Below the pieces are notes generated by a model. It saw only the letters and a program-made list of their open reading frames with translations, did no database searches and was not told where the DNA came from. This document shows, one piece after another, positions 2,748-27,553 of a DNA stretch of 64,000 bases. Each line of letters opens with the position of its first letter. Positions within the stretch are counted from its first letter, which is position 1. This DNA is from a virus. Taxonomy: Duplodnaviria; Heunggongvirae; Uroviricota; Caudoviricetes. The DNA lies in the IMG/VR virus record IMGVR_UViG_3300035208_002255, positions 1 to 64,000 of that record; one strand, given 5' to 3'. A program made the position numbers and the translations under genes.

Positions 2748-3458
2748 ATGTATAGGGAAAAGTCATCAATCATTTGGTCATTAACAGAATCGGAATTCCG
2801 AGAACTTATTAAATCTTCCTCAACTTATAAAGAAGCTTTGATTAGGCTTGGTTTTGCCATAAAGTCCGGAGGAAACTATAAGACTTTAAAGAAGAGAATA
2901 CTAAGAGATAAAATAGATATTTCACACATTGAACGAAACAAACATCAATTTAGAGGTGTGGCTAAAGAAGAAATACCACTTGAGAAAATGCTTGTTAAAA
3001 ATTACCATAACTCAACTAGAAGTCTTAAACGAAAGTTATTAAACAGCGGATTGATTAAAAATCAATGTTTTAAATGTGGTCTTAAAGAAGAGTGGCAAGG
3101 AGAGCCTATCTCTTTGCAGCTTGATCATATCAATGGTGATCATGATGATAACCGATTAGAAAATCTAAGGATTCTTTGCCCAAACTGTCATTCACAGACA
3201 AATACTTATAGTGGTAAAAATTCACATCAAAGTAAAAGTCCAGATTGGATCTGCAAATGCGGAAGGCGTAAACACAAACAGTCAGATGTTTGTTACAGTT
3301 GTTTTAAACAACCGGAGAGAACTATTTGGCCATCTGATGATGATCTGATCAAGAAATCAGAAACACAATCAATACTAAGTATTGGAAAAGAACTTGGTGT
3401 TTCTGATAATTCTGTAAGAAAAAGGATTAAAAGAATTAGAGCGGGTAAAGAGAGTTGA
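2748..3458 (+). CDS. HNH homing endonuclease (paralog 1 of 3)
   Basis: LQLDHINGDHDDNRLENLRILCPNCH HNH motif; C-terminal LGVSDNSVRKRI helix-turn-helix; plus strand while neighbours are minus; paralogs at 43255 and 49747. Confidence 0.8.
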   Translation: MYREKSSIIWSLTESEFRELIKSSSTYKEALIRLGFAIKSGGNYKTLKKRILRDKIDISHIERNKHQFRGVAKEEIPLEKMLVKNYHNSTRSLKRKLLNSGLIKNQCFKCGLKEEWQGEPISLQLDHINGDHDDNRLENLRILCPNCHSQTNTYSGKNSHQSKSPDWICKCGRRKHKQSDVCYSCFKQPERTIWPSDDDLIKKSETQSILSIGKELGVSDNSVRKRIKRIRAGKES

Positions 3459-12284: not shown

Positions 12285-12800
12285 CTAATCATGCAAGAGA
12301 GCCTCTTCGTCAATTAATAACTTTTCTTCATATTCTAACAAATCCTGCTCGTTATCAATGGCAATAGGACAGGTACCATCACCACCTTCAATTAGCATGA
12401 GTTCATATTCACAATCCGATGAGCAACAACAATCACTAACTTCTGGAGGAAACTCAGGACGTTCTGTTAAGCTTTGTACAGGTAACCAGATTTCTTCACC
12501 ACAGTTCATGCACTTGCCAACACGCACTTCATCTCCAGGTTGGAATTTTCGATAACCAAAGATTCCAATCTGCATCTCTTTAAATTGACTAGCTGTCGGA
12601 TCGAGGATTTCACTATCAACAGTCTCACACCACCAATGATCTCTATCGCCTGCAATTGTGCTAACCCACCCAGGAACAACTATAAGTTCCGGAAATTGCT
12701 TTTGCATTTCCGTAGCACCTTGCTTACATAGACCCCAAATACTCTTTTGATTAGATACCCAATTAGCTATCCAATCATAGTATTTTTTGTTATCACTCAT
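12285..12800 (-). CDS. hypothetical cysteine-rich protein
   Basis: 171 aa ORF. Confidence 0.45.
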   Translation of the reverse strand: MSDNKKYYDWIANWVSNQKSIWGLCKQGATEMQKQFPELIVVPGWVSTIAGDRDHWWCETVDSEILDPTASQFKEMQIGIFGYRKFQPGDEVRVGKCMNCGEEIWLPVQSLTERPEFPPEVSDCCCSSDCEYELMLIEGGDGTCPIAIDNEQDLLEYEEKLLIDEEALLHD

Positions 12801-12827
12801 CTTACTGACTTTCTTAGATTGATTTGG

Positions 12828-13091
12828 TCACTGCTTGGCAAATTTACTAAGAATGTCTCGCTCGACCTGGGATTGCTTGATTACTCCACGAGCCTTAAGC
12901 GCAAGTCTTTCCCTCATCTCTTCAACGAATTCTTCCTTTAGAAACAAACTAATATCAGGGTTATTGAGTAGTTTATCGGCAATCTCAATATCAGATGCTT
13001 CATTTCTAATTTTTCCATTTGGAAATAGATGTTTAGAAAGACCATCAACTATAGACATGAATAGGTCGAATTTTGAATCAATTTCTTGCAT
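12828..13091 (-). CDS. hypothetical protein
   Basis: ORF trimmed to an internal Met to limit overlap. Confidence 0.3.
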   Translation of the reverse strand: MQEIDSKFDLFMSIVDGLSKHLFPNGKIRNEASDIEIADKLLNNPDISLFLKEEFVEEMRERLALKARGVIKQSQVERDILSKFAKQ

Positions 13092-13347
13092 GTGTACCTT
13101 TGTTTTGCAAACGCTCATAGACTGAAGAGACGGCCGCCTCGGTTGTGAGACCCATCTCATCCAGCACTTGATCGCGCCAATACACGCCTACATAGATGAC
13201 ATCCGGCTCGTCATCGAACCTAGTCTTCTTGGCATATTCTACCAAATTTGCATTCGGTTGTGTAGCAATTTCTACCGGAATCTGGAGCGATTCTATATAC
13301 CAGCTACCGCCTTCTTCACATACTATGAAATCAACTTTCCCAATCAT
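13078..13347 (-). CDS. hypothetical protein (start trimmed to MIGKVDF)
   Basis: The N-terminal 30 codons of the track ORF are the terminator hairpin. Confidence 0.35.
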   Translation of the reverse strand: MIGKVDFIVCEEGGSWYIESLQIPVEIATQPNANLVEYAKKTRFDDEPDVIYVGVYWRDQVLDEMGLTTEAAVSSVYERLQNKGTHARN

Positions 13348-13370
13348 GTAAACAATGTTGGCGTATGCGT

Positions 13371-13402
13371 AAAAGAAAAAGGCGGGTTTGAGCCCGCCTT
13401 TT
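13371..13402 (-). terminator. Rho-independent terminator (hairpin GGCGGGTTTGAGCCCGCC flanked by A and T runs)
   Basis: Perfect 7-bp GC stem with a U-run on the minus strand, just after the ABC ATPase stop. Confidence 0.7.
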
Positions 13403-13420
13403 CCCGCTTTTCCTGAGCAA

Positions 13421-15412
13421 TCAGGATTTAGCGCCAACACTCAGCATGTAGTCTTCGATTTCGTTCACCGCCTCAATGAAGTGAGGTGAGCGCTTCATGC
13501 TTTTATCTCGTACGAACGGTAGAGGGGATCTGAACATCTTACGAATGTTTCCAGGATTCCTTCCCATCACGTAGATATCATCACCAAGATATACAGCTTC
13601 AGGAATATCATGGGTGACGAATACAACTGTTGGATTGATATCCGCCCAAATCTTAGCAAGAAGGTCCTGCATCTGTAGACGGGTTTCGATGTCCAAAGCT
13701 CCGAATGGTTCATCCATTAAAAGAATCTCTGAGTGATAAACCAGAGAGCGAGCAATTGCTACACGCTGAAGCTGGCCACCGGAAAGCGTTGGATACTGAG
13801 CGTATTTGTCTTCGTGACCTTCGAGACCCACAAGCTTGATCATTTCCATGGCTTTCTCTCTGCGCTGTTTGAGAGGAATGCCTTGGTATTCAAGACCCAG
13901 AGCCACGTTGTCAAGAACGCTCATCCATGGAAATGAAGAGTACTGTTGGAAGACCATTCCAACCCTATCTTCCTGTGTTCTTTCTCGCCCATGAATAAGG
14001 ATCTTTCCAGAAGTTGGGGTTTGAAGACCAGAGATATACCTAAGTATAGTTGAATTGTGAACAACAAATCCATTGGCCACAAAAGAATGAGATTCTGGAT
14101 TTGTTAGATCGTACACATCACTTTCTGATACTTCAATATTTGAAATTCTTCTATAATCGCGAATTAGAGGTTCTTTATTAGATTTTGGTTGTTGTTTTCT
14201 TCCTAGTTTAAACAGCTTATAAAGATTTTTAGATTGACGAATGTATACTCTATGAGATTTTCCACGAAATGATCTTTTGTATCCAATACCCATTGTAGAT
14301 AGCATAACGCATACAAAATCAATTAACTCTTTGGAATTTAATGCAATTTCGGCATCTTTATTATTTACACGAGAGTATCCATCTGTATCAAACAAACCTT
14401 GTAAAAATCGTAGTTGATGGTTGAACGAACTTTGTCGAATGCATTTTGGAACATCTTTTGTATCAGCATTAACATTACCAAAGATTTTGTGTAGCCAATA
14501 TGTAAAATGATTACTTTCTTTTGGTCGCAATAAAACTGCTTTTGTTCCATTTTTTTCACTTTGAGTAACTTCCACTCCAAATGTTTTTAGAGTGTATGTT
14601 TTGAAGAAATCGATCAATTCTTGATCGGCGGAAGTAAAACTAAATTGTTCACCAACAGAACCGTCGCCAGCAATCAAACCAAAATAATATGCAATGTTAC
14701 TAGATACAAAACCAGGAGCTTTAAACTTTGGTTTTTTGAGTTGATTTCTAACAACCCTATTAACAATCATTGGGCTAATATCTAGTAACTTTGCAATTTC
14801 TCTTTGGTTTAAACCTATCCTTTTATATCGTCGGATTTTTCGCTGCTTGGAAAAGAAACTTTTAGGAATTGCTCTGGGTAAACAGACCCGATCTTCCTGT
14901 GATTCGAAATTCATCTGCAAACCTTCTTTGGCAATAAAGTGCCCAATTTTAAGGTTTGCCATGGACATCCACTCTTCTTTGTTAGCAATTTTAACAAGAA
15001 CAGGATGTTCTGGAGTGCCCTCCAATCTATCTCCATCTTCTGTTGTTATGATTATAGTTTTTTTCTTACCACCATAATAAGTATGAGAGATTCTTTGATT
15101 CTCATTAGCTACCAGAACACCAAAATTGTTTCTTGGCATTGGCTGGTTTACCGGATGTTGTTCATCAAATAAATCTTCAATTCTACGAAGACCAGTTTCG
15201 CAAGTAACCCATGTACCTTTAGCTACACATTTGCCACAACCCGAAGCACCAAGCAAGACAACAAACTGTCCCTGATTCGGCTTGTCTTCAATGAGAAGAT
15301 TGAAGTCCTCGATGATAGGGGGCTTGCCATCATAGACCTGTGAAATACCACTCAATTCAATGATATCAGGAAGTTCTGTATTGGTGAATTTAACTGGTTG
15401 TTCCATAATCAA
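13421..15412 (-). CDS. ABC transporter ATP-binding protein (NitT/TauT family) interrupted by an intein
   Basis: Walker A GASGCGK is split; C-extein has LSGGQLQRVAIARSL, Walker B LLMDEPFGALD and an H-loop; 663 aa, of which 271 aa are extein. Confidence 0.85.
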   Translation of the reverse strand: MIMEQPVKFTNTELPDIIELSGISQVYDGKPPIIEDFNLLIEDKPNQGQFVVLLGASGCGKCVAKGTWVTCETGLRRIEDLFDEQHPVNQPMPRNNFGVLVANENQRISHTYYGGKKKTIIITTEDGDRLEGTPEHPVLVKIANKEEWMSMANLKIGHFIAKEGLQMNFESQEDRVCLPRAIPKSFFSKQRKIRRYKRIGLNQREIAKLLDISPMIVNRVVRNQLKKPKFKAPGFVSSNIAYYFGLIAGDGSVGEQFSFTSADQELIDFFKTYTLKTFGVEVTQSEKNGTKAVLLRPKESNHFTYWLHKIFGNVNADTKDVPKCIRQSSFNHQLRFLQGLFDTDGYSRVNNKDAEIALNSKELIDFVCVMLSTMGIGYKRSFRGKSHRVYIRQSKNLYKLFKLGRKQQPKSNKEPLIRDYRRISNIEVSESDVYDLTNPESHSFVANGFVVHNSTILRYISGLQTPTSGKILIHGRERTQEDRVGMVFQQYSSFPWMSVLDNVALGLEYQGIPLKQRREKAMEMIKLVGLEGHEDKYAQYPTLSGGQLQRVAIARSLVYHSEILLMDEPFGALDIETRLQMQDLLAKIWADINPTVVFVTHDIPEAVYLGDDIYVMGRNPGNIRKMFRSPLPFVRDKSMKRSPHFIEAVNEIEDYMLSVGAKS
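14054..15229 (-). mobile_element. intein (392 aa) with LAGLIDADG homing endonuclease domain in the ABC ATPase P-loop
   Basis: Starts with Cys right after GASGCGK, ends ...FVVHN followed by Ser; LAGLIDADG blocks YYFGLIAGDGS and LQGLFDTDGYS. Confidence 0.8.
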
Positions 15413-15651
15413 TCCTCACTATCATCAGTTCCCAAAAAATCATCGTAGTATTCAGGCCCGTCTTCATCTTCTACAGGTTTTTGCACAAAGAAGGCTCGCT
15501 TCTTTCGGTGATACAACATTTCAAGTTTGAACTTGAATTTTGAAAACATTCTTTTAAGATCATCAATCTTTCCAAGTATGCCGGTTCTCGGCGTGTAGAT
15601 TACAAAAGATGATGAGCTAGAGTTTGATACAAAACCTGTTCGGATTTTCAT
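15409..15651 (-). CDS. GFVSNSSSSSF-motif family protein (paralog C)
   Basis: Internal start MKIRTGFVSNSSSSSF; upstream codons overlap the permease gene. Confidence 0.45.
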   Translation of the reverse strand: MKIRTGFVSNSSSSSFVIYTPRTGILGKIDDLKRMFSKFKFKLEMLYHRKKRAFFVQKPVEDEDGPEYYDDFLGTDDSED

Positions 15652-15652
15652 A

Positions 15653-16438
15653 TCACACCCTGTTCTTATATGGAAAGAATTGCTTATCCAAAGCTTTGAA
15701 GATGATATCTTGAACGAAGCCAACTACCACAATTACGAACAGCAAAGCAAACACTTTGTCAATCCGGCTTTGACGAGCTGAGGTAAACAGCATAGCACCG
15801 ATACCGCCATTGTTGTTAACCATTTCAGCTACGATGATGTACGTCCAAGAGATTGCTACCAGAACTCGGATATCATCAAACAGTTTTGAGAACACAGCTG
15901 GAAAGAACACGGTCTTGATTGTTTGCCACTTGGAAGCTCCCAATGTGAATGCCGTTTGCTGATAAACGCTTTCGACTTGTTCGACTCTTTGTACAACCAC
16001 TGGTAGTAGGTAAACGATGATACCGAAAGCCAGGAATTGAATCTTCATCATATCAAAGATACCAAACCACACGATGAAGAGGCCAGTGATTGCAGTGAGT
16101 GGAATGAATCGGATGGCATCAACCGGCTTTGCAAACAATCCCTTAAACAAAGGGAATAAACCAATCAGAAAGCCAAGGGGAACACATACTGCAACCGCTT
16201 CAAAGTAACCCATTAGATTGAGATACATTGACCTTCCCAATTGCCTCACCATCGCATCATCAAAGTGAAGTTCAGGGAGACATGCAATTACAGCACCAGG
16301 ACTAGGAAGAAGGGTAGGAGGAACGAGGTGGATTGCGGTGATTAGGTACCATACAAACAAGAGACTCAGACCGCCAACGATACCGATGACAGTCTGAGTC
16401 TTCTCATTCAGAGTACCTCTTAGTTCAAAGAGGTTCAT
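15653..16438 (-). CDS. ABC transporter permease (TauC/SsuC/NrtB-like)
   Basis: Six hydrophobic segments; EAA-like loop TAFTLGASKWQTIKTVFFPA. Confidence 0.75.
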   Translation of the reverse strand: MNLFELRGTLNEKTQTVIGIVGGLSLLFVWYLITAIHLVPPTLLPSPGAVIACLPELHFDDAMVRQLGRSMYLNLMGYFEAVAVCVPLGFLIGLFPLFKGLFAKPVDAIRFIPLTAITGLFIVWFGIFDMMKIQFLAFGIIVYLLPVVVQRVEQVESVYQQTAFTLGASKWQTIKTVFFPAVFSKLFDDIRVLVAISWTYIIVAEMVNNNGGIGAMLFTSARQSRIDKVFALLFVIVVVGFVQDIIFKALDKQFFPYKNRV

Positions 16439-16443
16439 CTGTT

Positions 16444-18000
16444 TTACATCTCCAAGATTTGGAACTCAGTTCGACGATTCCTTGCAAGGCAGACGGGAGT
16501 GTCTTCATTACAAGCGGGCTTGCTAGGTCCGTTACCAACAACAATGAAGCGGTTGGTATCGAAACCATGCTTTTGCACAAGATAGTCTACCACAGCTTGA
16601 GCACGTTGACGAGAAATTTGAATGTTAACTGCAGCAGATCCAGTCTTGTCAGTGTTACCCTCAACTCGAATACGAGATGTGGGGAACGCCTTCAATTGCT
16701 CAACAACCTTATCATCGATGATAGTCTGAGAATTCTCATCCAAGGTTACAGAACCATGAGCAAACGAAATCTTAACCGGCTTAGAAGCGACTGCATGAGC
16801 CGTAACATCGCGCTGAGTCGGAGCCGTAAACGTAGGCTTAGCCTCGGCAGCAACTTCGCCAGGAACCTGGAGAGAGCTAATGAACGAAGTATCAGCAACT
16901 ACATTCCAAGGTAGAGACTTGCTTGCGAGATTCAGACGACCGTAAACGGTAGTCATCTTCTCATAGATGCTTCGACCAGTTACACCAGCATACGAAGAGT
17001 TGAGACCGTAGAAGTCCTTGTTGTCGCCAAGGGTCGTGAGACGCACATTACCAAGAGACGCAAGAGCAAACTCTTTGGTAACATTCTGAAGGCCCTCAGA
17101 GAGGATCTGGGCCGCACGTTGCTTCGCAGCATCCGAACCGTTGATCTCAACAGCACCACGGAGCCAACCTTCAACCAGCTTCTTCAGATCAGCCTTGTGT
17201 GCATTGTAGTAAGCTTCCTTGACCATGAAGCCATCTGCAATGATGTTCGCCGCCTGCTTAGTGCTAACAAGCACCTTAGCTGCACTCACAGATTTCACAC
17301 AATCAGCATCATCCGGAGACCACACAACAGCTGCATCAACCTGTCCAGCCTTGAATGCTGCAGCTGCATCGATAGCACTGGGAACCTTGACAATGTTCAC
17401 ATCCATGATGCTAAGGCCACCCATATCTAACATCCACAACAGGAAGGTGTGAGACGGAGTTCCTTCAGCAACAGCAATCTTCTTTCCCTGAAGGTCAACA
17501 ACAGATCCAATGTTACTCTTAGTAACAATCGCATCACCACCACGAGACCAGTCAGCCTGGAAGAGGAACTTCACATTCTCGCCGTAATTGCCAGACTCAG
17601 TTGGGAAGGCGTCAACAGTCACCCACATAAGATCCATTGCACCAGACTTGAATGCCGCACGAGAAGCAGCGAAGTCATCCATCACGGAGAAGTTCACACA
17701 GATACCGTCCTGACGAAACTTGGAGTTCGCGTTATCTTTGAACCCATTGTTCCAGTACTGACCGCCGGCATAACCAGGCCATGTCACGACACCAACATTA
17801 ATACATCCGTTTCCAGCTGCGGAAGTTCCGGAAACAGATCCAGAAGCTCCAGGACCAGCCATCAGGCCAGAGACATCTTGTTGTCCCTTACCCTGAGGAA
17901 GAATGTACGGAGCACCAAACTTGTACCCAACGAACATAAATGTTGCGATGAGTGCAAGAATAACAATCTTACCACCAGCCTTAATCTTTACCTTAGCCAT
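16444..18000 (-). CDS. ABC substrate-binding protein (SsuA/TauA/NMT1-like) fused to C-terminal OmpA-like domain
   Basis: N-terminal transmembrane anchor, PBP2 fold, C-terminal NTDKTGSAAVNIQISRQRAQAVVDYL...NRRTEF OmpA signature. Confidence 0.65.
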   Translation of the reverse strand: MAKVKIKAGGKIVILALIATFMFVGYKFGAPYILPQGKGQQDVSGLMAGPGASGSVSGTSAAGNGCINVGVVTWPGYAGGQYWNNGFKDNANSKFRQDGICVNFSVMDDFAASRAAFKSGAMDLMWVTVDAFPTESGNYGENVKFLFQADWSRGGDAIVTKSNIGSVVDLQGKKIAVAEGTPSHTFLLWMLDMGGLSIMDVNIVKVPSAIDAAAAFKAGQVDAAVVWSPDDADCVKSVSAAKVLVSTKQAANIIADGFMVKEAYYNAHKADLKKLVEGWLRGAVEINGSDAAKQRAAQILSEGLQNVTKEFALASLGNVRLTTLGDNKDFYGLNSSYAGVTGRSIYEKMTTVYGRLNLASKSLPWNVVADTSFISSLQVPGEVAAEAKPTFTAPTQRDVTAHAVASKPVKISFAHGSVTLDENSQTIIDDKVVEQLKAFPTSRIRVEGNTDKTGSAAVNIQISRQRAQAVVDYLVQKHGFDTNRFIVVGNGPSKPACNEDTPVCLARNRRTEFQILEM

Positions 18001-18002
18001 GA

Positions 18003-19034
18003 TTATCCTTTATTGTTGAAGAAGCTCGCCATTGCAGACGAAGTTTGTGTTTGGGTTTCGTATCCGGTATATTCTGGCAATGCTTGGGTTTCAGTTCCAG
18101 TCGTTGCAATTCGAACCTTACCAACATTGCGCTTGTCTTCGTAACTCAACAGGGAACCATTCTGCTCGAAACTTTCCAACATTGCAAGTCCTTTTTCATC
18201 CCAGACTCCGTTTTGCAGATCAACGTTCATCATGAAGCCTTCGGACAACTCCATGAAAGTCTCCATCTCCCCGAGTTTATTGGCAATGTCTTCGGCAAGG
18301 AATTCGGCCGATTGCTCGAATAGTTCCTTTGCTTCCGAACCGGCAACCAAAACTTCGGCGGACTTCATTGCCTTGTGCGCAGCCTTGACAGACTTGTATT
18401 CCATTTCCAAAATACGAATCTGATCTGCAGTATCATCACGAAGGAACGAAACAGAGTTCCGCATCTTCATAAGAATACGACCAAGGAACTCCATCTTCTC
18501 ACTGATGGTTTGAAGCTTCTTGATGAAATCCTGAGAACGCGCCGCCTTTCGAGCATTTGCAGCAATAGCTACTTGATTATTATTCTTCTTGGCAGCATTC
18601 GCCATATGCATGGCATCCTCTGCAATTTGCCTCTCTTCAGCAATGGTACGATCAAGCTTCTTCTTCTGACCATTTAGCTTGCCGATATTATCAGCAATGG
18701 CTTGAAGACGCTCATCCATGTCATCAAGGTAATTCTTGAGAATACCAATCGGATCAATAGTGATAAAGAAACTAGTTAATGCGCGCATTGCACTCTTGAA
18801 CATTGCTCCGGCAAGTGCTCGTACCTTGTTATTCATCACCAATGCAATAAGAGCAAAGAGTGTACCACCAAGGAATGCGGCATATAAAGTGTTAGCTAGA
18901 GCTGCAATAATGAATGGCATCAGATAGTTTCCAGCAAATAGGAAACCAAGGATACCAATGAAAATGAAGATCATTCCAGTGCGCCCCTCAGGACGCTCGA
19001 AGAAACCTTTTACCTTACGTTGCATGTCTTCCAT
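18003..19034 (-). CDS. membrane-anchored coiled-coil protein
   Basis: Two N-terminal transmembrane helices, then a long heptad-rich region. Confidence 0.45.
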   Translation of the reverse strand: MEDMQRKVKGFFERPEGRTGMIFIFIGILGFLFAGNYLMPFIIAALANTLYAAFLGGTLFALIALVMNNKVRALAGAMFKSAMRALTSFFITIDPIGILKNYLDDMDERLQAIADNIGKLNGQKKKLDRTIAEERQIAEDAMHMANAAKKNNNQVAIAANARKAARSQDFIKKLQTISEKMEFLGRILMKMRNSVSFLRDDTADQIRILEMEYKSVKAAHKAMKSAEVLVAGSEAKELFEQSAEFLAEDIANKLGEMETFMELSEGFMMNVDLQNGVWDEKGLAMLESFEQNGSLLSYEDKRNVGKVRIATTGTETQALPEYTGYETQTQTSSAMASFFNNKG

Positions 19035-19045
19035 GATAATTCCCC

Positions 19046-19729
19046 TTATGCGACAACAATGTATGTTTCGATCTTTTGCTTATCGCCTTGGAGTTTACCA
19101 GAGACGAAATTATAGGTTGCCTCAAAAGAGGCGGCAGTCTGTTGAATATTGAGTCGTTCACGACCAATCTCGGAATTGATCTCAAGAGCTTCTTGTTGCT
19201 TTGCAGCAATGGCAGCTTGTGCTTCTTGAATTTGCTGCAACAGAGTTTGGATCTCCGCTTCTTTAGCAGTCTTAAGGTCTTCACGCTTTGTGACTTCACG
19301 AGCGTTCATCTGATCAACCTGAATTTGGAATTCCTTCTTTTTGGAATCCAAGATACCTTGGTAATGATCGATGGCTTTTAAAAGACCATCCTTTGTAAGG
19401 CCCATTGTGGATGCAGTAGTGAAGACTGCAATATACTTCTGGTTTTCCGGCAGTGGAGCGCTTGCCATTGCCGCCAACGCGTTTCGGAACTCGATATAAT
19501 CGAATCCTGGAATGTTAGCTTCTTCAATTGCCTGTGAGAGAAAATTGACCATCTTCTCATCAACAGCCCCGGGAATAGCGGGAGCTGCAATTTGAACAGT
19601 TGCAGGTTGAGTTGGCGGAACTACAGATGTTGCCGCAGCATATCCCGGAGCAGGTTGAGCAGGCTTCTTCTCCTGCGGGGGAGGAGCATTCTCAACTTCA
19701 ACAAACATACTTGCTAATTTGCCAAACAT
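19046..19729 (-). CDS. proline/alanine-rich coiled-coil protein
   Basis: N-terminal PPPQEKKPAQPAPG low complexity, then a coiled coil. Confidence 0.4.
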   Translation of the reverse strand: MFGKLASMFVEVENAPPPQEKKPAQPAPGYAAATSVVPPTQPATVQIAAPAIPGAVDEKMVNFLSQAIEEANIPGFDYIEFRNALAAMASAPLPENQKYIAVFTTASTMGLTKDGLLKAIDHYQGILDSKKKEFQIQVDQMNAREVTKREDLKTAKEAEIQTLLQQIQEAQAAIAAKQQEALEINSEIGRERLNIQQTAASFEATYNFVSGKLQGDKQKIETYIVVA

Positions 19730-19731
19730 TT

Positions 19732-20238
19732 CTACCTCTTTAATGCCCGAAGTAGTTCAGGCTTCTTTAGTTGTCCAATATCACAGCAGTACTTCTCTCC
19801 GAAACCAAAATCTTTCTTTGGTAACTTGATAAGTGCTGTGTGAGTTATCCAGCCAATGTCTTCGAATCCAGTCTCAACAGAACCCAGAATAACTATGTAG
19901 ATATCAGCCCAACGTTGGGGTTCATTAGGATTAACAATCAGATGTCCCTTATCTCTGGGCTGTCCATCCTTCTGAAGACCCAACCATACCACCTCTACGG
20001 AAAGAGGTAAAGTGAAATCGGATCCTCCATCTCCCTTTTTCCCAACTGTCGCATCGAACGGCTGATCATACTCTTGAGCTGCGAAGTATTCCGCAGCAGT
20101 GGCATTGATGTCATTATCAATGGAACACTCAGAACCATCAGATCGATAACCAGAAATACCAACAGCTCTCTTTGATAGGTACCGAGCTTCAGCTAGTGCT
20201 TTTACCAGACGAAGGGTTGTATCGTCAAGCTTTTTCAT
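19732..20238 (-). CDS. hypothetical protein
   Basis: 168 aa ORF. Confidence 0.4.
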   Translation of the reverse strand: MKKLDDTTLRLVKALAEARYLSKRAVGISGYRSDGSECSIDNDINATAAEYFAAQEYDQPFDATVGKKGDGGSDFTLPLSVEVVWLGLQKDGQPRDKGHLIVNPNEPQRWADIYIVILGSVETGFEDIGWITHTALIKLPKKDFGFGEKYCCDIGQLKKPELLRALKR

Positions 20239-20606
20239 TTAACTCTCCGAAAAGAACTTCCTCGACCATTATCAACTCTTCCATCTGCGGTCATAACGGT
20301 TAATCCTTGAGCTTTTGCTTTTTTAATGTATTCATCATGAGCTTCTGGAGTAAATCCTTTTTTACGTTTTGGCTGATCGCTTGCGGGCAAAGAAACGGGT
20401 GCAACCGCAACACTACTCTCACCATTTGTCATGGTTTCGGTATCAATTGCAAACCCAAATTTATCTATACTAGGGTTCGAACTTGAGTTAAGCGGTAGTG
20501 TTACTTCTGGACTTGTAAAGTAAGTCTCAAAGAATTGCTGCGCTTTATCCCTAGACTCTTTCCATCGTTTTTCGTAAAGATCATCAATCTCTTTTAGATA
20601 ACTCAT
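20235..20606 (-). CDS. hypothetical protein
   Basis: 123 aa ORF. Confidence 0.4.
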   Translation of the reverse strand: MSYLKEIDDLYEKRWKESRDKAQQFFETYFTSPEVTLPLNSSSNPSIDKFGFAIDTETMTNGESSVAVAPVSLPASDQPKRKKGFTPEAHDEYIKKAKAQGLTVMTADGRVDNGRGSSFRRVK

Positions 20607-20614
20607 ATTCCCTC

Positions 20615-20650
20615 CAAGAAAAAAGGGGACGGGATAAACCCGTCCCCCTT
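20615..20650 (-). terminator. Rho-independent terminator
   Basis: Hairpin GGGGACGGGATAAACCCGTCCCC followed by a U-run on the minus strand, just after the flotillin-like gene stop. Confidence 0.7.
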
Positions 20651-20668
20651 TGGACTAAACAATTTAAC

Positions 20669-22972
20669 TTAGGTTGCCTTTTCCATCAGAGTCTTGTTAC
20701 CAGTCAGGTATTGAAGTAGTGCGAGTGACATGAGTCCACTCTGATCCTTCTCACCAGAAGAACCACCTCCAACATACACATCAGGAATGAGCTTTAGCTT
20801 GTTACTAGCAATTCGCTCCACAACCTGAATCTGACCGAAGACCTCATTACCCATAGCTTGAACCTGAAGCTTGTAAGCTTCAGCATTGGACTTACCTTGT
20901 TCTAGGATAACGAGAGCTTGTGCAAGACCCTTCTTCTCGATAGCTTCTGCGTCCGCAACTGCGTTGACCTTAGTTGCTTCAGCGTCAGCACCTGCCTTCA
21001 AACGTGTTGCCTTCGCAGCACCCTCAGCACGAATCTCGACAGCACGAGCATCACCAGTGGATTTCTCGATCTCTGCATTTGCAAAGTTCTTCGAGATTTC
21101 AACACCACGCTCTGCCTCTACAACCTTGGGCTGCATATTAGCCTGAGCCTTAGCATTTTCAAACTGACGGCGCTCTTCCTGAGCTTGCTTCTGAGTGGTG
21201 AAGGTCATCTTCTCTTGCTCAGCAATTTGTCGATCTGTAACTGTACGAGTCAGCTCAGTGGGAAGAACAACATCTGCAATCATCGTATCCTTGGATTCGA
21301 TGTGGTGAATGCGAAGCACGCTCTGGATATGTTCCTTGGCGCGCTCTTGCAGTTCAGCACGTTTGGTGTACAAATCCAATGCCTTAACGGATTGTGCTGC
21401 GTTACGGAAGTGAGATGAGATTGCGGGTTCGAGAACCTGCGAAATCATGTTGTCTACAGATCCTAGGTTTGCAACAACCTTCGGAGCGTCTGACATTGCG
21501 ATATGGATAATAACAGAGACATCCATATTCGCATTAAACGCATCAGCGGTACGCAGAGTGATGGTTTTCAGATTGGAATCCAAAGCATGAGCGCTGGACT
21601 CGTTGTCTGCCCAATTCAAAAGAATCTGAGTTGTAGGCACCTTATCAACCTTACAGACGCGAGTGTTGATTGGATGCTTGCCAGGTCCAAGAGGCTCAGC
21701 CCAAATACCCTTCTTACCAGTCTGGACAATCTTCGCGTTCACGTCCGCGTTTGTGGTATCTTCACCTTCATCACCAACGAATGAGGTTACAACACCACAT
21801 TCACCAATGCAGACCTCAACCATTGGAACTTGTTCAATCATTGCGAACCAAGGATTGATAGCATAGTTACCAGAGCGAAGAACCGGAATCTGCAGACCCT
21901 TCTGACCCTTTTCAGCAAGAAATGCAGCGGCATTTTGGAAGTTATTATGAACCTCGATGGATACTTCATTAGCTGCAATCTTGGATGCATCGATAATTGG
22001 ACGACCTTCAAGGATAGTTACAATACCGATAGCCTCTGGTCCAATATAGACCCAAGGAACAACCTTCACGATGTTAAACAGGGCTGTATTGATACGATAC
22101 GTTCCTGGCATGAGAATCTCAAGCTGATGACCTTTCTGACCACCATTCTGCAAGAATGCATTACCATTCTCAAAGTTTGAATGCCCATCAACTTTTTTAC
22201 CAAGAAGAGATCCGTCAGGAATACGAGATCCATCCATTGCAGAGATAAGGCCCATATGACCGTTCGGAATCACGGTGACAGGCTTATTCTCAACATGGAA
22301 CAATCTTGTATTGATACGGTAGTTTCCAGGAGGAAGAACAGCAATCTGAGGACCCTTTTGACCACCATTCTTAAGGAACAAGTCTGCGTCCTGGAAGTGA
22401 TCGCAATCAACGGGTTCAGCGAAAATACGACCAACAGCACAAGCCTGACCTGCAATAGATTCAACGAGACCAATTTCATCTTCTCCGATGATAATAGCCT
22501 TCTCAATATTAATCACAAATAGATGTGGGTTAATCTGATATTGGCCAGGAGGCAAGATGGCCAGCTGGGGCCCTTTCTCTCCACCATTCTTCAGGAATGC
22601 TTCACCATCTTGAAACAGATTACAATCAATGGTCTTAGCAAAGAATTGTCCAGTAGGCATTGGCTTACCGGTAATTGCAGTAATAATACCGATCTGGTGA
22701 GTGCCAATGTTGGTGAACTTATGTTTTGTAACAGTGTTGATAAAAGGAATGAAGAAGTGGATACCAGGGCCGAGCGTACGGGCCTGAACACCAACCTCAT
22801 TTCCAATAGCAACGGTACGACCATCTGTCATGGTCTTACCGAAATATTTGCGTTCGAACGTAATGAATTCATCACCACCAGCAATAGCAAAACTGGTGAA
22901 GAAGAAAACCAGTCCGACGATTGCCCCGATAATGACGAGGTAATGCGCCAAAATGAAATTCAGAATAAACAT
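20669..22972 (-). CDS. flotillin/SPFH (band-7) family protein with five N-terminal ~55-aa tandem repeats
   Basis: N-terminal transmembrane segment; repeats FLKNGG.KGPQ...PG.Y.IN..LF; SPFH core; C-terminal AEAEA/EAIEKKG flotillin-type repeats. Confidence 0.65.
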   Translation of the reverse strand: MFILNFILAHYLVIIGAIVGLVFFFTSFAIAGGDEFITFERKYFGKTMTDGRTVAIGNEVGVQARTLGPGIHFFIPFINTVTKHKFTNIGTHQIGIITAITGKPMPTGQFFAKTIDCNLFQDGEAFLKNGGEKGPQLAILPPGQYQINPHLFVINIEKAIIIGEDEIGLVESIAGQACAVGRIFAEPVDCDHFQDADLFLKNGGQKGPQIAVLPPGNYRINTRLFHVENKPVTVIPNGHMGLISAMDGSRIPDGSLLGKKVDGHSNFENGNAFLQNGGQKGHQLEILMPGTYRINTALFNIVKVVPWVYIGPEAIGIVTILEGRPIIDASKIAANEVSIEVHNNFQNAAAFLAEKGQKGLQIPVLRSGNYAINPWFAMIEQVPMVEVCIGECGVVTSFVGDEGEDTTNADVNAKIVQTGKKGIWAEPLGPGKHPINTRVCKVDKVPTTQILLNWADNESSAHALDSNLKTITLRTADAFNANMDVSVIIHIAMSDAPKVVANLGSVDNMISQVLEPAISSHFRNAAQSVKALDLYTKRAELQERAKEHIQSVLRIHHIESKDTMIADVVLPTELTRTVTDRQIAEQEKMTFTTQKQAQEERRQFENAKAQANMQPKVVEAERGVEISKNFANAEIEKSTGDARAVEIRAEGAAKATRLKAGADAEATKVNAVADAEAIEKKGLAQALVILEQGKSNAEAYKLQVQAMGNEVFGQIQVVERIASNKLKLIPDVYVGGGSSGEKDQSGLMSLALLQYLTGNKTLMEKAT

Positions 22973-23055
22973 TCTTGTCCTTGTGTTTGGGGGTAATTCC
23001 CAGTAGCCGACAGTGTGGCATACTCAGTTTCCCAAGTCAAGAACTTTCTGTTTGG

Positions 23056-23129
23056 TATCCCCGATTGGACTCGAACCAACATTAAGACAGTTTAGGAAAC
23101 TGTTGCCTAATCCTTTAGACTACGGGGAT
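23056..23129 (-). tRNA. tRNA-Arg (anticodon CCT)
   Basis: Acceptor ATCCCCG/CGGGGAT, T-loop TTCGAGT, anticodon stem ACAGT/ACTGT, loop TTCCTAA. Confidence 0.6.
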
Positions 23130-23369
23130 ATATTAGGAAAACGTTAACAAAATAATGAGTTCCTTGATTCTAGCGTCTAATCTGGTTAGGCGGCACAATC
23201 AAAGAACCCATCATCAACGCTGTTGTTTCTGGGTCTATCTTTTCGACCTTGGCCCTTCTCAGGTTGAACTGTTCTATTTTTCAATCTTGTTGGATCATTC
23301 TTTGCTAGGATTGCAAGGATTGTATTCCTTGGCTTTCTAGGCTTGCGTTTCTTATTAGACATAATACTC

Positions 23370-23636
23370 CTATTCAATTTCATCTACATTTACTTCCATT
23401 TTAATGGTTCCCTTTTTAGAGATTGTATGAAATGAGAACCGTTTTTGGTTTACGGTTAAGTCTTTTACCAGTTCAAGAAATTCTGTTTTCTCTGAACTTT
23501 TAAATGCATAAACTTCTAAATACTGTTGAGATCCTGGACCCCAACCTGTATCTATGGACATTTCGCTTGATACAAATACAACATACTTGGCATCAAGCCC
23601 ATCGGTTTCTTGAACGAGAAATTGATTCCATCCCAT
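23370..23636 (-). CDS. hypothetical protein
   Basis: 88 aa ORF. Confidence 0.35.
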   Translation of the reverse strand: MGWNQFLVQETDGLDAKYVVFVSSEMSIDTGWGPGSQQYLEVYAFKSSEKTEFLELVKDLTVNQKRFSFHTISKKGTIKMEVNVDEIE

Positions 23637-23997: not shown

Positions 23998-24234
23998 TCA
24001 GCCATGTTTTCTTTCTATATGTACGACCCTCACATTAGGATCAATTGTGGCGGTCAATTGCAGTTCATGGGGTCCACTGTAAAAGTCCTCAGGAATGTCT
24101 GAACCCGTCTCATAGAGAGGGCGTACTGGTCTGCTCTCATTAATGTGAACAGCGCCCCCTTCAATAACATTCCACACTTGCTTGTTAATAACAGCACCTT
24201 TATCATCAAGTTGTTCGTATGTAATTCTATGCAT
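23998..24234 (-). CDS. hypothetical protein
   Basis: 78 aa ORF. Confidence 0.35.
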   Translation of the reverse strand: MHRITYEQLDDKGAVINKQVWNVIEGGAVHINESRPVRPLYETGSDIPEDFYSGPHELQLTATIDPNVRVVHIERKHG

Positions 24235-24904
24235 GTTTTAACTCCTCTCTCAAATCAGTCAATACAAAACCTAGCAAATTCAAGCCCTTCCACATTAATG
24301 GATCTTTAGCTGCTTTATCATCTTCTGCAAGACCGATACCCCAAATTCTATCAACAGGTGAAGCTTCTACAAGAATCTTTGATCCGGTACCAAGAAGAAT
24401 AGCTTTGTATTCATTATTTTGTGTGAACTTGTATCTATTACCAGAAAGAACTATATTGTATCTGTGTTCGATCCACACCTCTTCATCATAGTTTTTAACT
24501 TGGCGTCCAAGATCTTTTGCAATTTTAGGATAATCTGCTTCAAGAATCTTTTGAATGGTGTCCTCATCACCAAAGAGTCGAGCCTTTTCAACCATCATCC
24601 AGTGTTCAGCAGTTTTATAAAACACATCATCGACTGTGAAACCTTGATTTGCCCACTGAGAGAATGGACCTTTCCAAAATAATTCAAACTCGAACTTTTC
24701 TCCAGCTTTGATTCTTTCTTGTAGGTTTGTTACCTTTTTAAAGTCTTTCATAATTTCCTTTGGTGTTTCAAAAGCACCGCAAAAACATTTATATATGAGG
24801 CAAGCTCCGCCCCATTCATCTTTATTAAAGACGCAGCATTCATCATCAAGGCAATGTTCACTGCGTGCATGACCACACTTACACAAATCATCATTATTAT
24901 TCAT
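24227..24904 (-). CDS. NADAR (YbiA-like) domain protein with N-terminal zinc ribbon
   Basis: AEHWMMVEKARLF and ...GLNLLGFVLTDLREEL align to the E. coli YbiA signature blocks (SEHYFQAQKF ... NRLGYLLMELREQL). Confidence 0.7.
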   Translation of the reverse strand: MNNNDDLCKCGHARSEHCLDDECCVFNKDEWGGACLIYKCFCGAFETPKEIMKDFKKVTNLQERIKAGEKFEFELFWKGPFSQWANQGFTVDDVFYKTAEHWMMVEKARLFGDEDTIQKILEADYPKIAKDLGRQVKNYDEEVWIEHRYNIVLSGNRYKFTQNNEYKAILLGTGSKILVEASPVDRIWGIGLAEDDKAAKDPLMWKGLNLLGFVLTDLREELKHA

Positions 24905-25392
24905 AAATTACTAGGATCAATAATACTGATCTTGTATTCACGCCCTCTATTAATTTCTTTCTCGGCATAACGAATGGTTCCAAAAGTTCCGCCTTGTCTA
25001 ATGCCATTCCAAACACCTAAAAGCTGATCTGAATTATCTACAATCCACCGATCTCTAAGATACATTTTCTCAGGAGCATAAGGTCCGGGAGATACTACTA
25101 CAACCTCAATTGCTTGGTTAAGTAGCTCTCTGAATTTTTGCTTAGACCTCTCCGGCCACTGAGAGTCTTGACCATCACAAGGCATCGCAGCAATGAATGG
25201 AATACCCAAATCAATTGCTACGTAAGCTGCATACTGATCTACGCCAAGAGCCATTCCTGAAATGATCTTTTCAGGATTCAACTCTTTGATTTTATCAGTT
25301 AAAGCTTTGTATACCTTTTCATATGTTGGGTTTGGTATATCGTAACTGCAATTAAGTCCAGGAGGACGATGTCCAGTTATACCCAAAATCAT
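24901..25392 (-). CDS. SLOG/YoqJ-like (DUF1273) Rossmann protein
   Basis: N-terminal ILGITGHRPPGL; 4-nt overlap with the NADAR gene. Confidence 0.5.
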   Translation of the reverse strand: MILGITGHRPPGLNCSYDIPNPTYEKVYKALTDKIKELNPEKIISGMALGVDQYAAYVAIDLGIPFIAAMPCDGQDSQWPERSKQKFRELLNQAIEVVVVSPGPYAPEKMYLRDRWIVDNSDQLLGVWNGIRQGGTFGTIRYAEKEINRGREYKISIIDPSNL

Positions 25393-25628
25393 CCTGGCAC
25401 TCCATTGTATCCATTTTCTTCGATAACTCGAATAATTTCATCAACAGTTTTACGAGCAATAGGATCAGCAGATTGCATTCTGTTCCTACGTTCGAGTTCT
25501 AGGATTTTGGCATCCAACCGTTCGATTTCTTCAAACAGTTGACATACATGAGATGGGTATAGTTTAGCTCTATCTATAGTGCTAAGCCTATCTGAGTTAA
25601 AGTAAATATCAGCTATCTCTGGTCTCAT
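25389..25628 (-). CDS. hypothetical protein
   Basis: 79 aa ORF. Confidence 0.35.
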   Translation of the reverse strand: MRPEIADIYFNSDRLSTIDRAKLYPSHVCQLFEEIERLDAKILELERRNRMQSADPIARKTVDEIIRVIEENGYNGVPG

Positions 25629-25911
25629 ATGAATCCAATAGTGGTATGGAATGATCGGTTGAAGAATCTAGTCTTTCAACTATTTTGACCTTGTTCTTTT
25701 TTTGATCGATGAAAGAACCATCCAATGTATAAAACTTAACACACTTTCCGGGGATTATTCGACACCAACCGGCAGATGTTTCTAAAGATCCAACATTGAG
25801 TTTGACTTTTATCCAAAGATCTTTATCTTCTATCTTTTTAGGTTTTATAGTAATCGTTCCTAGAAAGATAACAACAGAAACAATTGCTGTTAGTAATCCC
25901 CAAAACCACAT
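25609..25911 (-). CDS. small membrane protein
   Basis: N-terminal hydrophobic helix. Confidence 0.35.
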   Translation of the reverse strand: MWFWGLLTAIVSVVIFLGTITIKPKKIEDKDLWIKVKLNVGSLETSAGWCRIIPGKCVKFYTLDGSFIDQKKNKVKIVERLDSSTDHSIPLLDSYETRDS

Positions 25912-25949
25912 TGAACTATTCCCAAGGTGATGATGTTTTGTTCCATGAT

Positions 25950-27344
25950 CTACCTAAAACCCAAAGCTTTCATTATAGAATTCTTACCAAGAATTTCTTC
26001 TTCATTTCCACTGTACTTTTCACGAAGTACATCAATCTCTTTAGCGCGTTCAAAGACTTCATCAATTGTAGATCTTTGCAACTGAAGACAGAGTTCTTTA
26101 ATATCTGCTCCAGTTAAGCCTTCGGAAGATTCAATACATTTGATCAGATCAACATCTGAAAGAGTTATCTTCATTTCGGAAGCATATCTTTCAAAGATTT
26201 CTTTCCGATCACTTTCTGAAGGTTCTGGTACTTCGTAAATCTGATCGATTCGGCCTTTACGAGTAACAGCTTCATCATACAAAATTCCAGAGAATGTATT
26301 GGCAGTAAACAAGAAGTTTGTATGTGGATTCTTGTCCTTTACAGACTCTAGCATTTTAAGTACTGCTTTGATGTAAGGTGGGCCATCATTTGATCTATCA
26401 CAGTCATCAAAGATGATGAAGTCTGGTTTCATTTGAAGAAATAAAGATTCCATTTCCTCAATGATTGGAACAGTATCAAAGCCAGAAATAATGAAGACTC
26501 TGCCTTCAACACTATCAACTATAGAGTTAACAATTCCGGTTTTACCAGTACCCGGCTTGCCGATAAGTAAATACCCGCGAGAGAGTTTGTTCTCCCTGAA
26601 ATATTTGTAATCATCCTTCAGTTTCTCAATTAACTTGTTAGATGATCCGAAAATCTTCTTCTGAGTTAGTTCAGTTTTTACATAAGTAAGGTTACCATCA
26701 TCAGCTTCAAGCTGAATGACACGACCTAGTTTAGACCAAAGCATATCGAGGATATCATCTTTAGTTATACCCTTTGTAACAAGAACTTTTTTGGTAATCT
26801 CAGATTCTCGCTCTTGCACCCAGTAAAGAAAACCATCTTTGTTGATTGGGTATCTGTACAACCAATATGGAGGAGAGAAAGGTGCATGGTCTTGAGGTCT
26901 GAAGACCTCATCTGGCTCAACTATCTGTTCGAGCAAATCTCCAATGATCTCTTCAGAGATCCCGAAATCAATAGTTGTAAGATCTTTACGCTCAAGAATT
27001 CTAGATCTATTGAAATCTATATTCCTAGCAAGTCTCCAAGCTAGAGCTAGCGTTTTTGTTCTAGCAATTAGCGGACTATCATTCTTGGACGGAATGAAAT
27101 GCCAATGATCGATAATTACCTCTACATAAGACGCGATGGTATTTAAGGATGGTAGTCCACAGAAAATTGAGTTTTTATCTATAATTTTTTGGATTCCAAA
27201 ACCTATTGTAGAATCATCAATATCAACTTCCCTGCGAGAAATAGCTTTGAGAGGTGGTGCTAAATTTTTCACATTCAAACTTTCTGGCGATTCACCAAAG
27301 AATTCAATCAGAATTAAAGAGGTGAGCCGCGCATTCCTCGACAC
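25950..27344 (-). CDS. AAA+ ATPase
   Basis: Walker A GKPGTGKT, Walker B IIFDDCDR, arginine finger region. Confidence 0.7.
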   Translation of the reverse strand: MSRNARLTSLILIEFFGESPESLNVKNLAPPLKAISRREVDIDDSTIGFGIQKIIDKNSIFCGLPSLNTIASYVEVIIDHWHFIPSKNDSPLIARTKTLALAWRLARNIDFNRSRILERKDLTTIDFGISEEIIGDLLEQIVEPDEVFRPQDHAPFSPPYWLYRYPINKDGFLYWVQERESEITKKVLVTKGITKDDILDMLWSKLGRVIQLEADDGNLTYVKTELTQKKIFGSSNKLIEKLKDDYKYFRENKLSRGYLLIGKPGTGKTGIVNSIVDSVEGRVFIISGFDTVPIIEEMESLFLQMKPDFIIFDDCDRSNDGPPYIKAVLKMLESVKDKNPHTNFLFTANTFSGILYDEAVTRKGRIDQIYEVPEPSESDRKEIFERYASEMKITLSDVDLIKCIESSEGLTGADIKELCLQLQRSTIDEVFERAKEIDVLREKYSGNEEEILGKNSIMKALGFR

Positions 27345-27349
27345 CGATA

Positions 27350-27553
27350 TTAGTTGCTTTCTCTCATTTTCTTAAGCTGTTCTTTAAGAACCATTCTTGC
27401 AAATTCTATATCTCTAAACAATGGTTGAGGTACTTTTAAATGCATCATCAAGACATCTCCATTTGAATTCTTTAAAATGGTACTTGGTCTTGCCTTGCAA
27501 TGCTGGATGGCATCTAACAGATCATCAAACGGTTTATCATTTACGAAATACAT
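27350..27553 (-). CDS. hypothetical small protein
   Basis: 67 aa ORF. Confidence 0.3.
   Translation of the reverse strand: MYFVNDKPFDDLLDAIQHCKARPSTILKNSNGDVLMMHLKVPQPLFRDIEFARMVLKEQLKKMRESN

Follow-up and report, generated by a model that had tools for sequence, protein, structure and literature searches.

A huge-phage ABC importer of the NitT/TauT kind with an OmpA-fused binding protein, a predicted PspA-like neighbor and an intein within its ATPase

What a complete ATP-binding cassette (ABC) importer is doing in a phage genome is the question raised by one region of the IMG/VR record IMGVR_UViG_3300035208_002255, a Caudoviricetes sequence of which positions 1 to 64,000 were analyzed (hereafter, the window). 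On the minus strand, three genes encode an ATPase, a permease and a substrate-binding protein that ends in an OmpA-like domain (SBP-OmpA); the coordinates of these and other features are collected in Table 1. We found the trio to be a complete binding-protein-dependent type-I ABC importer of the broad NitT/TauT kind, and a genuine part of a huge-phage genome. Judged from gene order and homology, it is the tail of a conserved five-gene operon, in which the genes for a 227-aa protein (x227) and a PspA-like protein precede SBP-OmpA, the permease and the ATPase. The operon type is already known from cellular genomes; the window adds a phage-borne copy with a rare intein insertion.

Pfam searches detected ABC_tran, BPD_transp_1 and NMT1 in the three products and all parts were intact, which bears out an earlier reading of the window made without database searches (the sequence-only reading) that had called them a complete NitT/TauT-type importer. 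The permease matched BPD_transp_1 over aa 86-253 (E=8.8e-17), has about six hydrophobic segments and contains the EAA-type loop (TAFTLGASKWQTIKTVFFPAV) attributed to it. That reading had also described three consecutive minus-strand genes; ATPase, permease and binding protein are all there, but an 80-aa open reading frame (ORF) splits the permease from the ATPase. This ORF was seen solely in the window and in a relative on an 84-kb Logan contig (L006; 52% identity) and is one of three scattered paralogs in the window, and it was therefore rejected as a conserved member of the operon. The three small ORFs, at 15409-15651, ~49610 and ~8129 of the minus strand, have MK[ILF]RxGFVSNSSSSSF in common as an N-terminal motif. 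Scores against NCBIfam models fell far below the family cut-offs (TauB, 182.5 against 357; TauC, 99 against 342; SsuA_fam, 74.6 against 163.5; NtrB, 45 against 209). The same was true of the best matches of the permease (SaoP and TauC) and of the binding protein (SsuA_fam and the urea-carboxylase-associated binding protein), which places the importer outside every characterized subfamily (TauABC, SsuABC, NrtABCD, CmpABCD).

The binding protein had been described as a 518-aa protein with an N-terminal membrane anchor and a C-terminal OmpA-like domain, and both parts were found. Pfam matched OmpA at aa 413-509 (E=1.5e-19), along with NMT1 (1.6e-9) and NMT1_2 (9.6e-7); the two motifs quoted in support of the OmpA assignment, ARNRRTEFQILEM and ISRQRAQAVVDYL, are both present, and a profile search of the PDB with the protein reached OmpA-like domains at 4.5e-23. 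An AlphaFold2 model built from 40 homologs (pLDDT 87.8, pTM 0.81) consists of a transmembrane helix (aa 8-33), a disordered linker (34-63), a two-lobed periplasmic binding protein (PBP) fold (67-376), a second linker and an OmpA-like domain (403-516). Failure of the C terminus to model as OmpA had been set beforehand as a refutation of the fusion; the domain was instead modeled with confidence (pLDDT about 84-95). D451 and R466 of its TD...SxxRA motif are invariant in the 40 homologs, so that the C terminus has both the OmpA-family fold and the conserved Asp and Arg with which such domains touch the peptide stem. The K-rich N terminus ahead of helix 8-33 points to an N-in signal anchor. Foldseek placed the binding domain closest to E. 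coli TauA (6ssy; E=5e-17) and SsuA, with TM-scores of 0.79-0.80 (target-normalized) at 15-17% identity. SBP-OmpA is thus, as modeled, a class II PBP of the NMT1/SsuA/TauA fold. Its C-terminal OmpA-like domain, with a TD...LS..RA motif and a Cys pair near the C terminus, is held in common with MotB/PomB, Pal, YiaD and TssL, as is the layout of membrane anchor and periplasmic linker. Unlike those proteins, it has a complete solute-binding domain between anchor and OmpA-like domain, and its partners are ABC subunits, not stator, Tol or type VI secretion system components.

In comparison with E. coli TauABC and SsuABC (TC 3.A.1.17; TauA 6ssy, SsuA 2x26), the window system has the same binding-protein fold, type-I permease family and ATPase family. 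An (S/T)xSH motif at a helix N terminus and an acidic residue after the hinge strand are also common to them; in the TauA/SsuA profile alignment, TPSH and GGD of the window protein align with STTH and NSE of TauA. It differs in the additional transmembrane anchor and OmpA domain, in a cleft rich in Trp, Asp and Glu, in its low identity to the E. coli proteins, and in having no tauD or ssuD partners near the operon. Gene searches of the window for assimilation genes (tauD, ssuD and nitrate reductase types) returned none near the operon. Cleft residues W74, D108, D109, W126, D130, E135, D150, W151, D156, S183, W227, D231 and D256 are invariant in the 40 homologs, and are common to phage and cellular members. 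This Trp/Asp/Glu-rich cleft, together with the acidic residue aligned with the Glu of TauA NSE, weakly suggests a specific ligand that is possibly cationic, of the amine or guanidinium type. At 15-17% identity to the nearest structures, no substrate can be assigned, as the sequence-only reading had anticipated.

The gene for the 343-aa PspA-like protein ends 2 nt upstream of the binding-protein gene, and x227 lies 11 nt farther upstream on the same strand. Packing is tight from the gene for a 168-aa protein upstream of x227 to the ATPase, with gaps of -4 to 11 nt. Across the 108 loci compared by tblastn, the order x227, PspA-like, SBP-OmpA, permease, ATPase was found in most bacterial and huge-phage loci, the latter including IMG/VR contigs as long as 512 kb. 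The PspA-like protein begins with a transmembrane hairpin (two hydrophobic segments, about aa 20-67), followed by a cytoplasmic helical hairpin (aa 95-226) that was modeled at pLDDT 85-94. The top 11 Foldseek matches of this model in the PDB were all Vipp1 or PspA, including E. coli PspA(1-144) (4whe; TM-score 0.81, rmsd 2.5 Å). Searches of the PDB by sequence, with the single sequence or with a profile, gave nothing significant, and the fold search alone links the protein to Vipp1/PspA; PspA_IM30 is matched by 15 of the 28 members of its family. From a sub-threshold profile match and a moderate-confidence model, the neighbor is predicted to be a transmembrane-anchored PspA/ESCRT-III-like protein. 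x227 has no transmembrane segment; it shows a conserved MxxKLxSxF motif at the N terminus, a core of the form GFDY[IL]E[FY] and, at the C terminus, a coiled coil. In two bacterial loci, L004 and L005, the gene that immediately precedes the operon is its homolog (blastp, 1e-21 to 1e-27). No Pfam, NCBIfam or PHROG family matched x227 and a profile search of the PDB gave coiled-coil noise only. A relationship of x227 to the PspA-like protein was considered and rejected (hhalign probability only 15%).

A PspA-linked operon type encoding a PBP+OmpA protein and an ABC transporter was described from comparative genomics of cellular genomes by Ravi et al. (2024; mSystems, PMC11237479), who suggest a link of membrane remodeling to solute transport with OmpA binding peptidoglycan. 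Their example from Ca. Handelsmanbacteria (OGG56892.1; architecture in their Table S3) reads X, PspA, SIG+PBPB+OmpA, TM permease, ABC-ATPase, TM+Snf7, inactive-AAA+AAA. Its first five genes agree with the window operon in order and domain content, a likeness at the level of gene order and domain architecture. In contrast to that operon, the window copy is phage-encoded, carries the transmembrane hairpin on the PspA-like protein itself, has an intein in the ATPase and adjoins a lineage-specific SPFH protein. A 634-aa AAA+ ATPase follows the operon in an Aquimarina locus (L086), as in the published example. The classical AAA ATPase gene at 25950-27344 of the window lies 3 kb upstream of the operon string, with unrelated genes and a tRNA between, and its product has no detectable similarity to the Aquimarina protein. 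The window operon therefore has the defining features of the type described by Ravi et al. except for the Snf7/AAA+ extension. No discussion of phage-borne copies of the operon, in huge, jumbo or mega phages, was found in the literature searched.

In order to estimate selection, gene pairs of the window and L006 were compared at a synonymous distance (dS) near 1. The ratios of non-synonymous to synonymous change (dN/dS) were 0.11 for x227, 0.09 for the PspA-like gene, 0.07 for the binding protein, 0.03 for the permease and 0.016 for the ATPase extein; the operon genes are under strong purifying selection in the phage lineage. Over a longer range, the ATPase, permease and binding protein are 49-62% identical to cellular Bacteroidota proteins (57-58% for the permease against L004 and L005).

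The ATPase ORF is interrupted in Pfam searches, with ABC_tran (E=7.3e-24) matched only on aa 454-570, Intein_splicing at E=3e-13 and LAGLIDADG_3 at E=2.5e-15 in two stretches. It spans 661 aa from the ATG at 15406, which is likely the true start, or 663 aa if the TTG at 15412 is used (13421-15412), because a 392-aa LAGLIDADG intein lies inside Walker A; the spliced protein would be about 269-271 aa. Alignment with five intein-free homologs (L006 and four others) fixed the insertion point at K61/C62...VVHN453/S454-T, in GASGCGK/ST, where the slash marks the junction. The Walker A sequence GASGCGKS (pattern G..G.GK[ST]) occurs in the spliced sequence only, and the Q-loop, LSGGQ, Walker B and H-loop are intact. 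The class-1 splicing residues are complete (Cys1, block B TPEH, terminal His-Asn, +1 Ser); these and both LAGLIDADG motifs (YYFGLIAGDGS and FLQGLFDTDGY) are conserved in seven of seven intein alleles. The ATPase would be translated as a 661-aa precursor that needs protein splicing: an acyl shift at C62, transesterification to S454 and cyclization of N453 would rebuild the GASGCGK-ST P-loop, and the enzyme would be active only once the intein had been spliced out.

Within the exteins the L006 allele is 96% identical to that of the window and is intein-free, with the empty site formed by GGTTGTGGCAAG joined to TCAACAATTTTG; the intein was absent from all 107 other loci compared. Its GC content is 0.339, against 0.449 for the exteins. 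Among 5.8 billion proteins, relatives of the intein formed 7 clusters only, all of them NitT/TauT-type ATPases of 659-672 aa with the same insertion site. The nearest inteins outside these clusters lie in MutS-like proteins, at about 26% identity. In two pairs of alleles the inteins are 78-80% identical and the exteins 64%; this excess, together with presence/absence polymorphism at 96% extein identity, is a signature of homing, and the excised LAGLIDADG endonuclease could home into intein-free alleles such as that of L006. A further intein-bearing allele was seen on a 135-kb contig of JGI sample 3300075153 (P0127), in the same operon context and together with genes for ribosomal protein S21 and a TnpB/Cas12f-like protein. 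The GK/S or GK/T junction of the P-loop is a well-known hot spot of intein insertion. Like the P-loop LAGLIDADG inteins of phage and bacterial ATPases, the window intein has a class-1 layout (Cys1, TxxH, HN, +1 Ser) at this site, an empty allele in a close relative and homing signatures; it differs from them in its host protein, an ABC-importer ATPase. The insertion is thus of a familiar type, made rare by its host, and no report of an intein in an ABC-importer ATPase was found in the literature searched. A second intein was observed in the window, in a PhoH-like P-loop ATPase ORF (62573-64000, minus strand) that runs past the window end. It is of the LAGLIDADG type (LGALLGDGS, LIRGLMDTDGT) and ends at FIVTHN/TLLEKLDPY; its N-terminal junction is outside the window, and the C-extein matches Pfam PhoH at 8e-29.

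More than 2,800 proteins are homologous to SBP-OmpA at E<1e-5; almost all of those listed are 505-530 aa long with the same two domains, and NCBI names the family 'phosphate ABC transporter substrate-binding/OmpA family protein'. With one genome per GTDB species scanned, it turned up in at least 556 of them, overwhelmingly of Bacteroidota (Saprospiraceae, Chitinophagales, Bacteroidales and Flavobacteriaceae). The OmpA fusion, membrane-anchored and predicted to bind peptidoglycan, is therefore not peculiar to phages and belongs to a large, mostly Bacteroidota family. Chromosomal carriers include a complete Aquimarina genome (L078) and a 4.86-Mb Bacteroidales chromosome (L040). In L004 and L005 the genes for SBP-OmpA, permease and ATPase are flanked by those for seryl-tRNA synthetase, ribosome recycling factor and asparagine synthase; one of these contigs is 2.07 Mb long and the other 885 kb, which makes it certain that cellular copies exist. 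Some matches in metagenome-assembled genomes may be misbinned phage contigs. In three Aquimarina loci (L078, L083 and L086) the operon is immediately preceded (~100-2800 of the locus) by densely arrayed tRNA genes, 7-15 in number and varied in anticodon, which the other bacterial loci lack.

For ordinary phages the suggestion that a full importer is unusual holds true, yet the very largest curated phage genomes do have full-length homologs. In IMG/VR, SBP-OmpA was found on 22 contigs, nine of them 215-513 kb long. Among 50,697 curated phage records, full-length SBP-OmpA was confined to genomes of at least 497 kb, namely 15 Lak megaphages (540-552 kb), a 735-kb phage present as two records and Bacillus phage G (498 kb), with the sole exception of a 38-kb metagenomic fragment. 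The Prevotella Lak phages, the 735-kb phage (LR756501) and phage G have the full-length binding protein, permease and ATPase in common with the window; their binding proteins are 30-40% identical to that of the window, and the intein is in none of them. In Lak and LR756501 a PspA-like gene lies upstream of the transporter, and LR756501 also has x227. Phage G differs from the window in gene order and in having two SBP-OmpA paralogs (gp249 and gp250) beside the permease (gp243) and ATPase (gp245). GenBank labels the phage G genes 'ABC transporter' and 'OmpA/MotB domain'; its records for Lak and LR756501 are unannotated. A neighbor-joining tree of the binding proteins, rooted on phage G and calculated without support values, places the window and L006 in one clade with huge-phage contigs of IMG/VR and sets Lak and the 735-kb phage apart in another, deep one; the cellular Bacteroidota make up a single compact clade nested among the phage lineages. 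Because of this nesting the tree, which is only indicative, suggests long residence of the family in huge phages rather than recent capture.

Upstream of x227, the tightly packed gene string is headed by the gene for a membrane-anchored SPFH/Band-7 protein with a transmembrane segment at aa 12-30 and repeated NGGxKGxQ...PGxYxIN units N-terminal of the SPFH domain. Among the loci compared, only the window and L006 have the SPFH gene next to the operon. A homolog with 40% identity is encoded by the 642-kb uncultured phage LR756502.1 (343823-345568), in which the curated phage search found no full-length SBP-OmpA match, and several Vibrio phages have weaker homologs. Genes for 168-aa and 123-aa proteins separate the SPFH gene from x227; they are packed with 2-nt gaps or 4-nt overlaps and are kept in L006 (92% and 45% identity); neither product matched Pfam, PHROG or NCBIfam.

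Taken together, we lean toward an envelope or membrane homeostasis module that the phage supplies during infection, and favor this over nutrient scavenging. In the predicted arrangement the binding protein would sit in the periplasm, held to the inner membrane by its anchor helix and non-covalently to peptidoglycan by its OmpA-like domain, and would pass a specific ligand on to the permease dimer. On the cytoplasmic face, the PspA-like protein and x227 would act near the transporter, and the conserved linkage suggests that transporter and membrane-anchored PspA-like protein work jointly. The SPFH protein, whose place at the head of the gene string fits an envelope theme, may join the module in this lineage. 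By such means the phage could keep the host envelope intact and energized through a long infection. Several observations weigh against the homeostasis reading. The coupling of transporter and PspA-like protein is read from gene linkage, and the cationic-ligand idea from residue composition. The PspA_IM30 match of the window protein (E=1.9e-7, 31.3 bits) is under the cut-off of 33.9, and its model is of moderate quality overall (pLDDT 67). The window operon differs from that of Ravi et al. in having no TM-Snf7 or double-AAA genes downstream. Lastly, phage G has the importer genes only, with neither a PspA-like gene nor x227 detected over a range of 8 kb, so that the transporter can exist without its PspA-like partner.

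The best-surviving alternative, which we nevertheless regard as rather unlikely, is that these are auxiliary metabolic genes for scavenging a nutrient such as sulfonate, taurine, nitrate, bicarbonate or phosphonate, comparable to cyanophage PstS but with the whole transporter. It draws on the intact importer under purifying selection, on the nearest solved structures (TauA with 2-aminoethylphosphonate, and SsuA), on best NCBIfam matches to TauB/TauC/SsuA families and the urea-carboxylase-associated binding protein, and on the alignment of TPSH/GGD with TauA STTH/NSE. Yet those matches lie far below cut-off and the identity to TauA and SsuA is 15-17%, and anchorage of the binding protein to the cell wall is not typical of a high-flux scavenger. 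No riboswitch or known regulatory RNA was found upstream of the operon, where scans of eight cellular loci and of 12800-23400 in the window gave tRNAs only. Scavenging is judged less likely because, in cells as in phages, genes for the PspA-like protein and x227 nearly always accompany the transporter, and because no assimilation genes lie nearby.

Quite improbable, in our view, is that SBP-OmpA serves mainly as a structural staple, as MotB, Pal and TssL do, or as a periplasmic sensor that signals through its ABC partner to the PspA-like protein, with little or no net import. The MotB-like layout of N-terminal transmembrane segment, periplasmic module and OmpA-like domain would suit either role, as would linkage to PspA-like and, in this lineage, SPFH scaffold proteins, and solute-binding proteins are reported to feed signaling systems (PMC8050422). 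A canonical BPD_transp_1 permease with its EAA loop and an ATPase with all catalytic motifs argue otherwise, and, in keeping with active transport, no other operon gene has a dN/dS as low as these two (0.03 and 0.016).

Whether the genes belong to a phage at all was assessed from the window and its relatives. The window contains 37 tRNA genes (1014-58968), all on the minus strand, one of them a UAA suppressor, as well as several homing elements, scarcely any PHROG matches and a single dominant coding strand. As TAA remains in use as a stop codon within the operon, for one in the PspA-like gene, there is no general recoding in this region. The phage identity of the window follows from the tRNAs, the homing elements and the relatives; weighing against it, no capsid, tail or complete terminase gene was found in the 64 kb, and a flanking 423-aa ORF gave as a phage marker only a weak match to a PA5oct structural protein. 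The intein-bearing ATPase, with the same neighboring genes, was also found on two contigs, of 154 kb (ENA) and 35 kb (Logan), and a 169-kb JGI contig likewise carries the 661-aa ATPase. L006, whose binding protein is 88% identical to that of the window and is also on a 233-kb NCBI contig, matches the window gene by gene (NAD kinase, AAA, YpsA, NADAR, Band_7, two small genes, x227, PspA-like, SBP-OmpA, permease, small ORF, ATPase). As gene order and flanks recur in several independent assemblies and in L006, misassembly is excluded, and the chimeric contig or host DNA that the sequence-only reading had named as a possible undoing of its claim was not what was found. Megablast of 13000-19100 against curated phages gave no match, so that there is no close sequenced relative among them. 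Host DNA, misassembly or a decaying pseudogene of an intein-split ATPase, for which one might cite the GC content of the 16-23 kb block (operon and SPFH gene; 0.44-0.49 against a window mean of 0.40) and the 49-62% identity to cellular Bacteroidota, is effectively refuted by the recurrence of the locus, by the presence of homologous operons in the complete genomes of Lak and the 735-kb phage and of the transporter genes in that of phage G, and by dN/dS of 0.016-0.11 with splicing residues and both LAGLIDADG motifs conserved in seven alleles. The higher GC of the block could reflect ancestry from a higher-GC donor or coding constraint.

Other features of the window were noted in passing. A DUF5662 gene (29041-30078) has an internal NUMOD4 and HNH_3 endonuclease insertion, and a free-standing HNH endonuclease gene (2748-3458; phrog_10822, E=2e-47) lies on the little-used plus strand. 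A cofactor/NAD gene cluster (24227-29044) comprises NADAR (24227-24904), YpsA/SLOG (24901-25392), NAD kinase (27537-28436) and dephospho-CoA kinase CoaE (28433-29044). Genes for classical AAA ATPases lie at 25950-27344 and 30183-31712. A promoter and terminator scan of 12800-23400 was uninformative, because counts were at or below the shuffled expectation.

Table 1. Positions of the importer operon, its predicted domains and neighboring features in the 64,000-nt window.
Feature	Position (nt)	Strand	Basis
ABC ATPase precursor, 661 aa from ATG 15406	13421-15406	-	Pfam, alignment with intein-free alleles
C-extein of ATPase	13421-14053	-	
Class-1 intein, 392 aa, LAGLIDADG homing endonuclease and helix-turn-helix region	14054-15229	-	Inside Walker A
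N-extein of ATPase	15230-15406	-	
80-aa ORF (MKIRTGFVSNSSSSSF...) between permease and ATPase	15409-15651	-	phrog_7397, no assigned function
ABC type-I importer permease, 261 aa	15653-16438	-	BPD_transp_1, EAA-type loop
SBP-OmpA, 518 aa	16444-18000	-	Pfam, AlphaFold2, Foldseek, PDB profile
Predicted OmpA-like peptidoglycan-binding domain, aa 403-516	16453-16794	-	Model
Predicted TauA/SsuA-like class II PBP domain, aa 67-376	16873-17802	-	Model
Predicted transmembrane signal anchor of SBP-OmpA, aa 8-33	17902-17979	-	Model
Predicted PspA/Vipp1 (ESCRT-III superfamily)-like protein, 343 aa	18003-19034	-	Pfam sub-threshold, Foldseek
x227, 227-aa cytoplasmic protein, first operon gene	19046-19729	-	Homology to bacterial loci
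Small gene, 168 aa	19732-20238	-	Between SPFH gene and x227
Small gene, 123 aa	20235-20606	-	Between SPFH gene and x227
Membrane-anchored SPFH/Band-7 (flotillin/HflC-like) protein, 767 aa	20669-22972	-	Pfam Band_7, E=1.4e-29
Suppressor tRNA, anticodon UUA, reads UAA	31840-31934	-	
One odd tRNA	58407-58486	-	

These results leave knowledge of ABC transporters, OmpA domains and inteins as such unchanged. The intein adds a rare natural ABC-importer ATPase whose P-loop exists only after splicing, and its matched empty allele suits studies of homing among giant phages. The operon type, widespread in Bacteroidota, may be approached through phage G with Bacillus megaterium as host or through culturable strains of Aquimarina or Lacihabitans. 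The most interesting lead is that the very largest phages repeatedly carry the transporter genes. In its boldest form, which we think unlikely, the module would be a hallmark envelope machine of these phages across unrelated lineages and hosts, in which the ABC transporter couples a periplasmic or cell-wall-derived signal to ESCRT-III-like remodeling or repair, not metabolism, and which here would include the SPFH scaffold. The full module was seen in Lak and the 735-kb phage, both on Bacteroidota, and the transporter genes only in phage G, which has a Gram-positive host. Were this form true, giant phages would use the machine to keep the cell alive and energized, or to build an intracellular membrane structure, while making their huge virions. 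More generally, if linkage reflects function, the largest phages would bring with them a cell-wall-anchored transporter and an ESCRT-III-like protein, and maintenance of the host envelope would become a phage-encoded task.

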